A stretch of 64,000 nt of DNA from Terriglobia bacterium. Lineage in GTDB: Bacteria; Acidobacteriota; Terriglobia; JAJPHL01; JAPKYU01. Location of the stretch: positions 64,001 through 128,000 of the forward strand of contig CBDCVK010000003.1 of assembly GCA_965223005.1 (NCBI GenBank), in the 5' to 3' direction. Each line of letters begins with the position of its first letter. The first letter of the stretch is position 1. The notes below the pieces were generated by a model. That model was not told the DNA's origin. It did not search any database and worked only from the letters and a program-made list of their open reading frames with translations. A program made the position numbers and the translations under genes. Of this stretch, positions 596 to 50,802 are shown piece after piece.

Positions 596-724
596 ATGAA
601 CACCGCGGCACCAAAAGCGAGAGAAGAGTCGTGCAGCTCGCGGCTAAACGGCACCCTTGCCGGAGACTGACCCGCTACCCCCGCGGGGTTGACTGTTGGT
701 CAAGGGCAGGGCGACAATGCCCAC

Positions 725-2044
725 ATGATTGAACAGTTGCTCTTACATCCAGTCCGGTCGCTGCACGCCACCGCCCCGGGTATTGCGGAAGTGGACCCGG
801 CGGTCCGCCGTGCCTTTCAGGCCGTGCCGGAAGTCCTGACCGGCATTCCGGAGGGCGCGCCGGTGGCCGTCACCTGCGGCAGCCGCGGCATTGACCGGAT
901 CGCGGCGGTCGTGCGGGCCGCCTGTGCCGTGTTGCGAGAAGCTGGCGCGCGGCCCTTCGTGGTTCCGGCCATGGGGAGCCACGGCGGCGCCACAGCGGAG
1001 GGACAGCGCCGGCTGCTGGCCGACCTAGGGGTCACCGAAGAGCTGGTGGGCGCCCCGGTAGTCTCCTCGATGGAAACGGTTTCGCTTGGTCGGACTCCCG
1101 AGGGCTTTGAGACCTTCATGGACCGCGCCGCATGGGAGGCCGGGCGGGTGCTGGTGCTGAACCGGGTCAAGCTCCACACCGACTTTGAGGGGGAGGTGGA
1201 AAGCGGCCTGCTGAAGATGATGACGGTGGGGTTAGGCAAGTTGGAAGGAGCCACCAGCTTGCACAAGAACAGTCTTCGCAGCGGATTCTCTGAGGCGATC
1301 CTTCCCATGAGCCGCCACGTGGTGGCCAGTGGCCGCATCCTGGCTGGGTTGGGCCTGGTGGAGAACGACCGGCACAGATTGTGCGAAGTCGCCGCCGCGC
1401 CCGCTGCCGACCCCGCTGCCGGCCCTGCTGCTGGCATCGAAGGGCTGGACCGTCGCTTGCTGGCTCGATCCCGGCAGTTGCATCCCAAGCTGCCCTTTTC
1501 CTCGCTGGACCTGCTGATCGTGGATGAGATCGGCAAGAACATCAGCGGCGTGGGAATGGACACCAAGGTGATCGGGCGCAGTGTCCATCCCGACCGCTTC
1601 CCGCTGGACGTGGAGCGCTCCATCCGGATCCGTCGCATCTACATCCGAGACCTAACACCGGAAAGCGAGGGCAATGCCTCCGGCATAGGCCTGGCCGACG
1701 CGATGCACGAGCGCATCGGCCGCAAAGCCGATTTCCACGTCACCTACACCAATGTGCGCACCGCGCTCGCGTATGTGCCTGCCCGCATGCCCATCTCTTT
1801 CCCAAGCGATCGAGCAGCGCTGGATTTTCTGCTGAGCAACCTGGGCTCGCCTGAGACCGAAACGGTGCGGGCCGCCTGGATTCGCAACACCTTGTCGATG
1901 GCCACGCTCCTGGCCACGCCTCCCTGCGTGGCCGAGCTGGCTGGCAACCCCAACTACGAAGTGCAACCCGCGGTGGCATTGGAATTTAACGAGGCGGGCG
2001 ATCTGAAAACAGGTCCTCCGGTCCTGGCCGAAGCCACCCTGTAA
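725..2044 (+). CDS. Lactate racemase N-terminal (LarA-like, DUF2088/DUF362-type) domain protein
   Basis: GSRGI, PAMGSHGGATAEGQ, NRVKLHTDF and GKNISGVGMDTKVIGR motifs; ATG at 725 preferred over TTG at 689. Confidence 0.75.
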   Translation: MIEQLLLHPVRSLHATAPGIAEVDPAVRRAFQAVPEVLTGIPEGAPVAVTCGSRGIDRIAAVVRAACAVLREAGARPFVVPAMGSHGGATAEGQRRLLADLGVTEELVGAPVVSSMETVSLGRTPEGFETFMDRAAWEAGRVLVLNRVKLHTDFEGEVESGLLKMMTVGLGKLEGATSLHKNSLRSGFSEAILPMSRHVVASGRILAGLGLVENDRHRLCEVAAAPAADPAAGPAAGIEGLDRRLLARSRQLHPKLPFSSLDLLIVDEIGKNISGVGMDTKVIGRSVHPDRFPLDVERSIRIRRIYIRDLTPESEGNASGIGLADAMHERIGRKADFHVTYTNVRTALAYVPARMPISFPSDRAALDFLLSNLGSPETETVRAAWIRNTLSMATLLATPPCVAELAGNPNYEVQPAVALEFNEAGDLKTGPPVLAEATL

Positions 2045-28369: not shown

Positions 28370-29539
28370 TCAGCAGCAGCCTTCCGGACCGCAACAGGCG
28401 TCATCGGTGGGAGCGACCGTCTTGCGGTAGCGTTTGCCTTTGGTCTCCCGCGGATCGCGCACCGCGGCCCCGTTACAGGCGAATACCCGCGCCTTCCGCA
28501 ACGGGACGTTCCGCAAAGGCGGTACGGGAAGGATGTCACTTGCGTAGGGCGAGCGGGTGGGCAGGTGGTAGGTTTTGTCACAGACGGCCATGCGCTGGCC
28601 CCGGCGCAGGACGTGGCCGTCGTCATCGCGAACCTCCTTCCACGGTCCCTTGTAGACGACCGCCTGGTAACGCTCCAGGCAAGGCCCTTCCTTGCCCTTG
28701 GAGGCTGTCACGGTGGCGGAGCGGAACTGGATGCCCCGCACCGTCTGCCAGGGCTTTTCGTCGTACTTGGCCAACTGGATGCCGTGGAAGCCGGCGCGCT
28801 CGAAGGCCTGCAGAAACCGGTCTTCGCGGAGCGCGCCCGCCAGACAGCCGCTCCAAAGCTTGGCGTCGCGCTTCATCTCGCCCGGCACATCTTCATCTGA
28901 GACGATATCGCTGACGGCCACCCGGCCGCCGCGCTTGACTACCCGGTACATCTCGCGGAACAGCTTTTCCTTTTCGGCGTCTGGCACCAGGTTGAGCACG
29001 CAACTGGAGATGACGATGTCTACCGATTCATCGGGGAGGAGCGGCGCCGAAGAGCGCAGGCGCGCCGCGAAGGCGTCGAAGTCCGCCAATTGCTCAGTGG
29101 TGCGCACCGGATGAGCTTTCAGGTAGGCGTCCACCTCGTCCAGCGAGAGTCGCGGGTCCTGGATGCGGGCGCGGTGAAACTCTACGTTGTCGTACCCCAA
29201 CCGTCGCGCAATCGTCGGCTGGTGTTTCCGCGCCAGCGCCAACATTTCGGCGTTGAAGTCCACCCCGATCACTCTGCCGGTGGGGCCGACCAGTTGTGCC
29301 GCGATGTAACAAATCTTGCCGGCGCCGGAGCCCAGGTCGAGTACCGTGTCGCCAGGCCGTACAAACAAGGAGGGGTCGCCGCAGCCGTAATCTCTCTCCA
29401 AGATCTCGGTCGGGATAAACTCCAGGTAGCGCGGGTCGTAGCTGACCGGACAACAAAGCGCCGGCTCTTTGGCGCGGGCAGCCTGGCTGTAGCGCTGCCG
29501 CACCGCCTTTTCCGTATCCAGTGAAGTTGCGCGTGGCAT
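28370..29539 (-). CDS. ArsM/AS3MT-like SAM-dependent methyltransferase
   Basis: LCCPV, RDYGCGDP, VLDLGSGAG, SSCVLNL, DIV and LWSGCLAGA motifs; C-terminal CC-GPEG-CC. Confidence 0.8.
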   Translation of the reverse strand: MPRATSLDTEKAVRQRYSQAARAKEPALCCPVSYDPRYLEFIPTEILERDYGCGDPSLFVRPGDTVLDLGSGAGKICYIAAQLVGPTGRVIGVDFNAEMLALARKHQPTIARRLGYDNVEFHRARIQDPRLSLDEVDAYLKAHPVRTTEQLADFDAFAARLRSSAPLLPDESVDIVISSCVLNLVPDAEKEKLFREMYRVVKRGGRVAVSDIVSDEDVPGEMKRDAKLWSGCLAGALREDRFLQAFERAGFHGIQLAKYDEKPWQTVRGIQFRSATVTASKGKEGPCLERYQAVVYKGPWKEVRDDDGHVLRRGQRMAVCDKTYHLPTRSPYASDILPVPPLRNVPLRKARVFACNGAAVRDPRETKGKRYRKTVAPTDDACCGPEGCC

Positions 29540-48883: not shown

Positions 48884-49372
48884 TTAGTACGTCCTCGAAC
48901 CTTGCTGGGCTGGGGCCTCCGGCACAACGCCGGTCTCACCCGGTTCTTGCGCCTCATGCGTTGCACTCGGCTTCTGGGCTTCATACTTGGAGGCGCACTT
49001 GGCCTGAATCCGCTTGGCTACGAAAACCCCGTCGGGCCCGTAGGAGCCGTCGGCCAGCGCCTGCGCGCGGTCGCGGAAGGTGTCCGGCAGTGGCTCGGTC
49101 CCTACATACAGTACTGGAAGCGTTTCGCTCTCTTGCTCCAGGGTGAACGAGACGCGGTCGTGGTCCCGGTGAATGGAACCGACCGTGACATCGCCGCCTA
49201 CCCGCAGCCGCTTGCCGTAGGCCTCATCGCCCATGGCCTGCAGCTCCGGGACGGTGACATAGTAGGTCTTGCTTTCCTGGATGCCGCTGACTACCAGCCA
49301 GGTAATCGTGGCCAGAATCAACAGGATTCCTGCGCCAATTTTCCAACGCTCTTTGCGCATTCGACCCGACAC
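48884..49372 (-). CDS. ccmE: Heme chaperone CcmE (CxxxY variant)
   Basis: TM, YYVT, LRVGG, PDTF and AKCASKY in place of AKHDENY; AAGGAGG RBS upstream. Confidence 0.92.
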   Translation of the reverse strand: MSGRMRKERWKIGAGILLILATITWLVVSGIQESKTYYVTVPELQAMGDEAYGKRLRVGGDVTVGSIHRDHDRVSFTLEQESETLPVLYVGTEPLPDTFRDRAQALADGSYGPDGVFVAKRIQAKCASKYEAQKPSATHEAQEPGETGVVPEAPAQQGSRTY

Positions 49373-49645
49373 AGGCACACCCTCCTTCTGCGGGACCGTC
49401 GCGGACCCCGATGTCTATTATATCGCCGTTTGCAAGCGGTTCCCGCCCCAAACGGTGGCATACCGTCCCATCCCAGCAGGCCGCTGAAAATCCTTTTCCG
49501 TACGTTTCCGGTGGGTCGCATGGCCAGAAACGGCCGCGCTCCCCCAGCGACCGACGCCCAACGACCCATCCCCCACGACCGGCGGGCGGGCGGCACGTGC
49601 CGCGCTGTAGTTCCCTGCGGGTTGTTGAGGCGTCGCAGAAAAGGC

Positions 49646-49685
49646 TTGACAGAGGGGTCCAATATATTCAAAGATATGAATATAT
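49646..49685 (+). promoter_or_regulatory. Promoter/operator of the arsR-like gene
   Basis: TTGACA at 49646-49651; palindrome ATATATTCA-N6-TGAATATAT (49662-49685) overlapping the start codon; ArsR/SmtB-like AT-rich operator in a GC-rich genome. Confidence 0.75.
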
Positions 49686-50136
49686 GAATGTGAATTTGGC
49701 CCATCCTCAGGAACTCTTCGCCGCACTCGGCGATCCGCTCCGCCTGCGCCTGGCCTGTTGCCTGACCGCGGTGGAAGGGGGGCTGTGCGTCTGCGAGCTG
49801 GTGGACGCGCTCCAGGTTTCGCAACCCAACGTCAGTCGCCACCTGAAGCTGATGAAAGCCGCCGACTTGGTCGAAGAGCGACGCGAGGGGCGCTGGGTGT
49901 ACGTGCGACTGAAGGATGCCAAGCATCCCCTCTTTGAGCAGATCCGTTGTTGCCTGGAGACGGTGTGCTGCTGCTATGACGTCCAGACCGATCTGAAGCG
50001 GCTGGCGGCGCGGCTGAAGCTGCGTCAGAGTGGCAAATGCGTGGTGGGAGTTCAACCTAGAAAACGGCGTGCGAACACGCCGGGAAAGGAGGCCGACCAT
50101 GTGCCAGTGTCCATGCTCCGTACCGTGTCCGTGTGA
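49684..50136 (+). CDS. ArsR/SmtB family metalloregulator, Cys-rich
   Basis: FAALGDPLRLRL, LCVCEL, SQPNVSRHL and RREGRWVY motifs; additional CC, CC and CCC clusters. Confidence 0.93.
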   Translation: MNVNLAHPQELFAALGDPLRLRLACCLTAVEGGLCVCELVDALQVSQPNVSRHLKLMKAADLVEERREGRWVYVRLKDAKHPLFEQIRCCLETVCCCYDVQTDLKRLAARLKLRQSGKCVVGVQPRKRRANTPGKEADHVPVSMLRTVSV

Positions 50137-50149
50137 CGATTGCTGCTAG
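50099..50149 (+). CDS. Putative 16-aa Cys-rich metallothionein-like peptide MCQCPCSVPCPCDDCC
   Basis: AAGGAGG at 50086-50092, 6-nt spacer, ATG at 50099, TAG at 50147-50149; 7 of 16 residues are Cys; overlaps the arsR 3' end in another frame. Confidence 0.6.
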   Translation: MCQCPCSVPCPCDDCC

Positions 50150-50328
50150 CGAGTCGTGATCTCGTTCGGGCAAAACCGGCGCTGTCAGTGGAGCGGCCGA
50201 TCCACTACAGCCCGGTACAACAAGTTTGCGAGTAGAGGCCAGCATTGCGCACCCGCCCTCCGAGGGCAGGACCGCCCAAGGCTGCAGCTTCTGCCACGCG
50301 CCCAAGGCCAGGAAAGGAGCGCACAAGG

Positions 50329-50802
50329 ATGTGGAAAGGCACAGTCGTTTCTCTGCACATCACCCCTGGGGCCAGTGCGCCTATGAGATCGGTTCCCCAG
50401 GCGCGTGCCGTGCCCGGTCGTGGGCTGGAGGGCGATCGCTATTTTCACCAAGTGGGGACCTACTCCGACAAGCCTCGTCCAGATAGCGAGGTGACGCTAA
50501 TCGAGATCGAAGCCATGGAGGCTTTGAAACACGAATCAGGAGTGGAGCTGGATGCGGGCCAGGCCCGCCGCAACATCGTCACCCGCCACGTCCCTCTGAA
50601 TCACCTGGCGGGCCAGGAGTTTCAGGTCGGCGAAGTAACGCTGCGCGGCATTCGGCTGTGCGAACCCTGTTCCCATGTAGAAAAGCTCACCCGGCCCGGG
50701 GTCCTGCGGGGCCTGATCCACCGGGGCGGCTTGCGGGCGCAGATTCTCACCCAGGGTGAAATTCGGGTCGGCGACGCTGTGCAGGAGCGGTCCGCCGTGT
50801 AG
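50329..50802 (+). CDS. MOSC domain protein
   Basis: GLEGDRY, RRNIVT, LCEPC and RGGLRA motifs; AGGAG upstream. Confidence 0.9.
   Translation: MWKGTVVSLHITPGASAPMRSVPQARAVPGRGLEGDRYFHQVGTYSDKPRPDSEVTLIEIEAMEALKHESGVELDAGQARRNIVTRHVPLNHLAGQEFQVGEVTLRGIRLCEPCSHVEKLTRPGVLRGLIHRGGLRAQILTQGEIRVGDAVQERSAV

Follow-up and report, generated by a model that had tools for sequence, protein, structure and literature searches.

A Shine-Dalgarno-led, cysteine-rich micropeptide gene behind arsR: a candidate metal(loid)-chelating module in Acidobacteriota and Gemmatimonadota

In cyanobacteria, the ArsR/SmtB-family repressors SmtB and BxmR each control a metallothionein gene, giving the SmtB-SmtA and BxmR-BmtA systems in which the metallothionein is a protein of roughly 50-60 aa. 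A further ArsR/SmtB-metallothionein pair is AzuR-NmtA of Anabaena (PMC8790569). Here we set these systems beside a locus from a Terriglobia bacterium of the phylum Acidobacteriota (GenBank assembly GCA_965223005.1, contig CBDCVK010000003.1, positions 64,001 to 128,000 of the forward strand), a stretch of 64,000 nt that we call the window and to which all coordinates refer. An arsR gene on the plus strand (49684-50136), encoding a 150-aa product with 10 Cys, is followed there by a short open reading frame (sORF, 50099-50149, plus strand) that starts with ATG, would encode the 16-aa, 7-Cys peptide MCQCPCSVPCPCDDCC and stops at TAG. The conservation of its start, Shine-Dalgarno sequence (SD) and stop across orthologous loci, its third-position variation, the decay of its start codon where it is lost, and RNA-library contigs that it shares with arsR make it very probable that this sORF is a real gene.

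A preliminary description of this DNA, made from its letters, had pointed out an SD and a short Cys-rich frame running over the end of arsR, as well as ten Cys residues in the repressor, and these readings proved exact. The SD (AAGGAGG, 50086-50092, plus strand) lies 6 nt (CCGACC) before the ATG, the sORF overlaps the final 38 nt of arsR in a different frame, and the ten Cys of ArsR (C25 C26, C35 C37, C89 C90, C95-97, C119) run along the chain as CC, CVC, CC, CCC and C. When the bacterium's own genome (3.24 Mb, 61.5% G+C, 96% complete) was searched for comparable frames, five of 61,516 six-frame ORFs of 8-25 aa had at least 7 Cys, and this sORF was the only one of 587 short ORFs with a strong SD to have at least 6. 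Gene callers miss it because it is far under their length cut-offs, and it surfaced only as a mis-called fusion, P0010, in which a frameshifted ArsR reads into the Cys peptide. A frameshift or readthrough tail of ArsR was ruled out as the source of the peptide, since the frame of the sORF with respect to arsR changes among loci (0, +1 or +2) and every copy has an SD and start of its own.

The preliminary description had also suggested scanning homologues of this ArsR for a ribosome-binding site (RBS) and a short Cys-rich ORF with synonymous variation, and this check was strongly positive. A set of 41 related genomes contains five ArsR orthologues with at least 66% identity, and every one of them carries a Cys-rich sORF that is preceded by GAAAGGAGG and starts 5-6 nt after it. 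Scanning one genome per species found 12 orthologous loci in Acidobacteriota/Terriglobia and Gemmatimonadales, and a metagenome scan found 80 further loci at 57-73% identity. In all, 95 loci with an orthologous arsR were compared, drawn from Acidobacteriota and Gemmatimonadota (15 genomic and 80 metagenomic); the metagenome loci are partly near-copies, and unique-sequence counts are given beside locus counts. A complete RBS-led sORF of 11-18 codons with 4-7 Cys stands at the 3' end of arsR in 74/95 loci, which is 74/89 of those with sufficient flank and 73/94 without L024, a sORF-positive locus whose genome is flagged as unpublished. The sORF is absent from 15 of the 95 loci, two contigs end within its first codons with the SD visible, and four loci were unassessable (two with too little flank and two with arsR running off the contig). 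As controls, the same scan found one match elsewhere in the 231 kb of orthologous loci and three matches in 261 kb from 84 loci whose ArsRs are more distant. The only one of these three to be inspected, in L011, was rejected as the end of a 171-aa gene.

The sORF is confined to the ArsR subfamily with extra Cys clusters, with G324/L184 and the 84 loci of more distant ArsRs lacking it. In samples of the two phyla, at least 3 of 401 Acidobacteriota genomes and at least 3 of 301 Gemmatimonadota genomes match the ArsR at E <=1e-35, these counts being lower bounds with up to 13 candidates scored per genome, and one of the Acidobacteriota matches, G324, has neither the Cys clusters nor a sORF. The module is rare in both phylum samples. 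A plasmid collection gave no ArsR match at E <=1e-15, and a profile of the subfamily matched 9 of 1.84 billion representative proteins at E <=1e-30 and 3,504 at E <=1e-10.

The 36 distinct peptides are 11-18 aa long (median 14.5) and contain 4-7 Cys. After the start residue they consist of 38.5% Cys, 19.5% Pro, 12.1% Asp and 11.9% Gly, with His absent from all 36 and Lys and Arg nearly absent, and 27/36 have CC at the end. Low mass, high Cys content and the motifs CxC, CC and CxxC give them a metallothionein-type composition. Acidobacteriota types include M.PCCPGPCCPG.GCC, MAAPCCPGCPCDDND, MCPCGPCPCGPGEGE and the window's own peptide, and Gemmatimonadota types include MCDCPWCTDGCC, (V/M)SDCPWCSGSCC and MNVLDCPCCGSGCC. 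The window peptide has no aromatic residue; Trp occurs in many Gemmatimonadota variants (CPWC), and Tyr or Phe in single variants. Among 41 unique upstream contexts, AGGAGG is the best SD core in 31 and the spacing from SD to start is 5-8 nt in 36, and the sORF either overlaps the arsR stop or starts 1-50 nt beyond it. Searched in its 39-aa extended frame only, a test that could miss a model of a 12-16-aa family, the peptide matched no family of Pfam or NCBIfam at E up to 10, apart from DUF7732 by chance.

Substitutions within the sORF follow the pattern of a coding sequence. There are 47 distinct DNA versions, six of which encode the same peptide, MSPCCPGPCCPGDGCC, and differ by synonymous changes alone; Cys is written with both of its codons (TGC 164, TGT 83), and each of the three stop codons occurs. 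When sequences of the same length and with Cys at the same places are grouped, 11, 16 and 51 sites vary at codon positions 1, 2 and 3; Cys losses cannot register in this comparison, since a shared set of Cys positions is what defines each class. In a clade of 10 sequences, the sORF has 2, 1 and 7 variable sites out of 15 each at codon positions 1, 2 and 3, and in that clade 37/63 columns vary in the last 60 nt of arsR and 52/78 in the 75 nt downstream. The Pro, Gly, Asp and Trp positions of the peptide are kept through synonymous changes as well. We read these patterns as purifying selection acting on the peptide. An untranslated sORF, conserved as part of an RNA or DNA element or arising by chance in GC-rich DNA, would fit with a frame of a mere 11-18 codons and with the overlap in 35 of 74 copies, where part of the conservation could be borrowed from arsR. 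This explanation is hardly credible when 39 of 74 copies have no overlap with arsR, when the loci retain the start, the SD and a stop in frame yet differ at third positions and in which stop codon they use, when decay includes loss of the start codon, and when the genome-wide and locus controls return one of 587 SD-led ORFs and one match in 231 kb.

Positions 49300-50351 of the window were also represented in RNA libraries. Four RNA-seq libraries from one sponge-metatranscriptome study contain contigs at least 99% identical to the window, which suggests that its DNA comes from a sponge-associated lineage. These contigs span 49702-50351, bridging arsR and the sORF and in one run also the start of the downstream MOSC-domain gene, and are compatible with co-transcription of arsR and the sORF. 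Positions 49408-49677 and all positions beyond 50351 were uncovered, and two contigs end at 50194/50195; such ends and gaps, coming from one study's contigs, were not taken as evidence for the start or end of a transcript.

Loci that lack the sORF were placed on an ArsR tree of 67 sequences and an outgroup, throughout which the sORF is spread. Ten sORF-less loci and two loci with short flanks form one clade (support 100/97), whose ArsRs read TVSG(C/Y/G) in place of TVC.C and have thereby lost C95/C96. In the sORF region of this clade the start is replaced by CTG, CTC, ACG or AGG, and the product would read LCDCQRSTDGGDG followed by a stop; L167/L168 retain the ATG and have lost the stop. Other forms of loss are deletion of the sORF (L171) and a deletion that joins ArsR to ..GSGCC (L164).

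The regulator itself has a winged helix-turn-helix domain, matching Pfam HTH_5 at 44.9 bits (cut-off 22) and NCBIfam HTH_metalloreg at 91.1 bits (cut-off 55), and its profile matches in the PDB are to ArsR, SmtB and CzrA, structures 6j0e and 6j05 among them. Its Cys clusters comprise a CC close to the N-terminus, the CVC of the DNA-binding domain and, within a C-terminal extension, C(C)-x4-5-C(C)C and one more Cys. Over 42 ArsR sequences, C35 of the CVC motif is invariant and C37 is kept in at least 90%; the last ~28 residues show no conservation. Against PDB sequences, the C-terminal Cys region (aa 73-125) gave only repeat-protein artefacts and matches with E >1.

Upstream of arsR, a -35-like hexamer can be read from the sequence (TTGACA, 49646-49651, plus strand), and TTGAC occurs at the equivalent position in 41/50 unique upstream sequences of the orthologous loci. 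The palindromic operator-like repeat that the preliminary description had placed over the arsR start is a perfect AT-rich inverted repeat with 9-nt arms (ATATATTCA-N6-TGAATATAT, 49662-49685). It spans the -10/start region and reaches two bases into the arsR ATG. An AT-rich inverted repeat is found at the same position in 48/50 unique upstream sequences from both phyla, overlapping a -10-like hexamer ~17 nt after the -35 and ending at the arsR ATG. The repeat is the presumed ArsR operator, which would make the gene autoregulated. The geometry of -35, -10 and a repeat ending at the ATG indicates that the arsR mRNA is probably leaderless or near-leaderless. Owing to the weak -10 of this genus, a promoter scan of the window did not call a promoter on the plus strand at this site. 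What this ArsR regulates had been raised as a question, and as far as sequence goes it can be answered: the operator core ATATTC-N8-GAATAT has a single occurrence in the 3.24-Mb genome, so that by this criterion the regulon would be the module itself, and the sORF and a hairpin are the sole conserved thing behind arsR.

This hairpin (CTGTCAGTGGA-GCGGCCGA-TCCACTACAG, 50182-50210, plus strand) begins 30-70 nt after the sORF stop across loci. In 28 unique copies from both phyla its apex, GGAG..CGGCCG..TCC, is invariant, pairing is kept in 84.9% of cells against 43-61% in slid controls, and three pairs change on both sides. It has one copy in the bacterium's own genome and no Rfam match, and the window as a whole has neither a tRNA gene nor a match to any Rfam family at gathering score. 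It is retained in the sORF-less locus L147, and the downstream sequence of the sister locus L149 matches that of L147 through the hairpin. The hairpin is likely to act as a transcript end or stabiliser. Its invariant loop is unusual for a plain terminator. A second, G+C-rich hairpin (CGGCGTG-CGAA-CACGCCG, 50065-50082) lies just 5' of the sORF SD and was called terminator-like on the minus strand by a scan, being followed there by TTTTCT. Folding of the RNA at 50050-50225 gave z = -1.76 and no convincing sequestration of the SD. The conserved unit, as read from the aligned loci, consists of promoter/operator, a probably leaderless arsR, SD-led sORF and hairpin, with flanking genes that vary.

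A Cys-codon-rich frame ahead of a hairpin brings to mind a regulatory ORF, in which ribosome pausing would report the supply of Cys-tRNA and control a downstream gene. Besides the Cys codons, the hairpin is followed by arsM in six loci and a canonical terminator follows in L025, and there is a precedent in the mycobacterial polycysteine sORFs, which one preprint describes as leaderless, first in the operon and upstream of Cys-metabolism genes (bioRxiv 10.1101/834739). What they have in common with the present sORF is a short frame that lacks annotation and is packed with Cys codons; here the sORF is SD-led, follows arsR as a second cistron, is often succeeded by a convergent gene, and is under selection on its non-Cys residues. 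The next gene is convergent in 35 loci, leaving nothing to attenuate, and the downstream genes are unrelated among clades, no identified one being a Cys-metabolism gene. With the hairpin beginning 30-70 nt past the stop, beyond a terminating ribosome, and with Pro, Gly, Asp and Trp positions conserved through synonymous changes, we consider attenuation very improbable.

The surroundings of the module differ between the two phyla. Gemmatimonadota-type loci have a convergent def downstream (35 loci) and a divergent thiC upstream (21 loci), with no co-oriented gene after the module. Acidobacteriota flanks vary, and other flanking genes encode a MerR-type regulator, an LMWP ArsC-like protein, a MIP channel, a second ArsR and a CDF transporter. 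No conserved neighbour beyond arsR was seen within 1.2-1.5 kb of the loci. A precursor of a ribosomally synthesized and post-translationally modified peptide was ruled out on this ground and because 11-18 aa leave no room for a leader. In the window, the sORF is followed by the MOSC-domain gene (50329-50802), a neighbour shared within this genus, and then by sdhA, neither of which is a pump or reductase, as had been noted at the outset; ccmE and ccmF lie upstream of arsR on the opposite strand.

A link to arsenic comes from the Acidobacteriota loci and from relatives of the regulator. Downstream of the module, on the same strand, arsM is present in six Acidobacteriota loci (L023, L113, L116, L103, L108 and L125), the copies in L108 and L023 scoring 281 and 258 bits against NF008823 (cut-off 263). 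The next ArsR relatives share a C-terminal ..RL.LR..GKCVVG extension, and fused forms occur: P0043 is a 372-aa ArsR-ArsM fusion (291 bits, cut-off 263; 40% identity to the window ArsR over 119 aa), and P0146 is a 329-aa fusion of ArsR with an LMWP ArsC-like domain. With arsM behind the module in six loci, and with ArsM or an ArsC-like domain fused to relatives of the regulator, As(III) is the best-supported ligand candidate, and the context favours arsenic over Zn or Cu.

The bacterium's own genome has three HTH_5 regulators only. At 96% completeness it gave no Acr3 (TIGR00832) or ArsB (PF02040) match with these models, and likewise no match to GshA (Glu_cys_ligase, PF04262) or GshB (GSH-S_ATP, PF02955), other glutamate-cysteine ligase families not having been searched. 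A lack of glutathione synthesis genes by these two Pfam models would suit a role in thiol redox or sulfane-sulfur buffering and sensing, with ArsR responding to oxidants or persulfides in the manner of BigR/SqrR types and the peptide serving as a sacrificial or carrier thiol, as would the CxxC-like motifs of some peptides (CPWC, CGPC) and a weak match of ArsR to the BigR model. That match, at 51.7 bits, is far under the cut-off of 155, and the CVC motif, the neighbours and the fusions connect the regulator with genes for arsenic and metals rather than genes of sulfur oxidation; a redox or sulfur function is accordingly unlikely in our estimation.

Taking these observations together, we propose, with a probability of about 0.55, that the locus is an autoregulated module making a thiol-rich micropeptide to chelate or buffer a thiophilic metal(loid). 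A sigma-70-type promoter overlapped by the AT-rich operator would drive an mRNA starting at or just before the arsR ATG. Binding of a thiophilic metal(loid) to the thiolates of ArsR would release the repressor from the operator, and a strongly translated peptide would then build up in excess over ArsR. Its thiolates could chelate the ion in S3-type sites for As(III) or in small thiolate clusters for Cd, Zn and Cu(I), and as the free ion falls, ArsR would rebind the operator and close a negative feedback loop. From translation of the peptide and the nature of the inducer to metal binding and feedback, these steps are proposals made from sequence.

Several points weigh against this model. To our knowledge no metallothionein is as short, and free short peptides are usually short-lived. 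Some of the peptides have just 4 Cys (MCPCGPCPCGPGEGE), the Trp of the Gemmatimonadota variants (..CPWC..) is atypical of metallothioneins, and the codon-position comparison is blind to Cys losses for the reason given above. The RNA-library contigs show neither ribosomes, strand nor level, and such libraries can hold DNA. The window's genus has no adjacent arsenic gene, with an ArsM-like gene 20 kb off. The sORF has been cleanly deleted in L147/L149, where all 10 ArsR Cys are kept, and the basal locus L140 has no sORF, so that ArsR lives without the peptide at these loci. Finally, the joint loss of the sORF and the C-terminal Cys cluster of ArsR, suggestive as it is, represents a single evolutionary event.

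The same loss bears on a different role, in which the peptide would be a trans-acting partner of ArsR that delivers metal(loid) to the repressor's Cys clusters, removes it or forms a bridge to them; as such it could be a detached ligand-binding tail, a mini-metallochaperone or an anti-repressor. The restriction of the sORF to the ArsR subfamily with extra Cys clusters and its decay in the clade that lost C95/C96 would be expected of such a partner, and 6/71 full-length ArsR relatives bear a 2-Cys tail on the ArsR C-terminus itself (..TCDC, ..GCNAC, ..KTCC, ..KRCC), with P0010 and L164 as natural frameshift or deletion variants that join ArsR to the peptide. A partnership is harder to reconcile with L147/L149, which have the full set of ArsR Cys without the peptide, with peptides that differ strongly among clades while the ArsR Cys positions stay fixed, and with a consensus SD for the sORF against none for arsR, which suggests a large excess of peptide over repressor. 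We regard a partner role as possible, though well behind chelation. More doubtful is an extended version, a split metalloregulator, in which the peptide would be the detachable ligand-binding tail of ArsR made as its own cistron, forming a ternary thiolate complex so that the peptide level sets the sensitivity of the repressor; it would also carry As(III) to ArsM where arsM follows, and would be a gene-encoded replacement for glutathione or phytochelatin in bacteria in which the search for glutathione synthesis genes came up empty.

If the peptide does bind metal(loid)s, it would be the shortest known gene-encoded thiol chelator, phytochelatin-sized yet ribosomal, and probably the smallest gene-encoded metal(loid)-binding peptide so far, present in dozens of soil and sponge bacteria of two phyla. 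The chelation model would assign a function to the Cys-rich ArsR subfamily of soil Acidobacteriota, Gemmatimonadota and the sponge-associated lineage, and would give genomes without a detected efflux pump a way of handling arsenic and metals by sequestration. At ~600 bp and with its own regulation, the module should be easy to test, and it could serve elsewhere as a minimal unit that both senses and binds metal(loid)s. The locus also illustrates that comparative genomics alone can validate a gene of 11-18 codons.

Some further features were seen around the module and its relatives. The window encodes an ArsM-like methyltransferase of 389 aa (28370-29539, minus strand), 20 kb from arsR, that scores below both cut-offs for NF040538 (345 bits, cut-off 500) and NF008823 (197 bits, cut-off 263). 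Upstream of the module in L157, a gene at 625-927 (plus strand) has a hydrophobic N-terminus that by eye suggests export and a Cys-rich end, ..GCPAGCCHGPEDCPTPDCCAK. A gene for a ~195-aa protein precedes arsR on the same strand in L022, L103 and L125, the L022 copy having a C-terminal DUF5818. Unrelated to the module are more distant ArsR-type helix-turn-helix proteins of 318-342 aa from Myxococcota (L036-L038), whose long C-terminal extension has a GxGxG motif and looks methyltransferase-like by eye; the gene after each of them has a start that resembles S-adenosylhomocysteinase by eye, and these loci look like the known SahR type.

Compared with the systems introduced at the beginning, the module shares with SmtB-SmtA and BxmR-BmtA an ArsR/SmtB repressor with thiolate sensor sites, a palindromic operator and a small Cys-rich effector. 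It differs in that the sORF stands behind the repressor gene on the same RNA and is not divergent, and in that the regulator belongs to a clade tied to arsenic genes. The effector, at 11-18 aa and without His, could not form a zinc-finger-like fold. The preliminary description had called the locus a candidate metallothionein module, and this holds as a functional analogy; homology to SmtA/BmtA went undetected in Pfam and NCBIfam with the 39-aa extended frame. With no family-model match, several times shorter and lacking His, the peptide can be called a metallothionein by analogy of function, not by membership. In the literature searched, which excluded most subscription papers and supplements, neither the peptide motifs nor such a module was found.

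Other small thiol-rich systems are alike in part. The short fungal Cu-metallothioneins of the Neurospora/Agaricus type (~25 aa) and mycobacterial MymT (~53 aa) are also very small and gene-encoded with CxC, CC and CxxC motifs; even the shortest of them are about twice as long as the peptides described here. ArsD, an arsenic metallochaperone of ~120 aa, is folded, works with the ArsA ATPase and binds As(III) through vicinal Cys pairs. It resembles the peptide in those vicinal pairs and in being encoded beside arsR, whereas no protein of this sort was seen at the module. The Cys of our ArsR sit at positions similar to three types of As(III) site, the CVC, the N-terminal CC and the C-terminal CC..C, of the As(III)-responsive R773, Corynebacterium glutamicum and Acidithiobacillus ferrooxidans proteins; the HTH_5 core is shared with these, and all three kinds of Cys cluster appear here in one protein. 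Phytochelatins, (gamma-Glu-Cys)n-Gly, are inducible As/Cd chelators (PMC8041291) that phytochelatin synthase makes from glutathione without the ribosome. They are similar to our peptide in size and thiol density, but the peptide is encoded by an ORF with SD, start and stop and, being ribosomal, is not a phytochelatin or any gamma-Glu-Cys product. On its sequence, the module follows the logic of the ArsR/SmtB-metallothionein theme, with a peptide that falls outside the SmtA/BmtA family.

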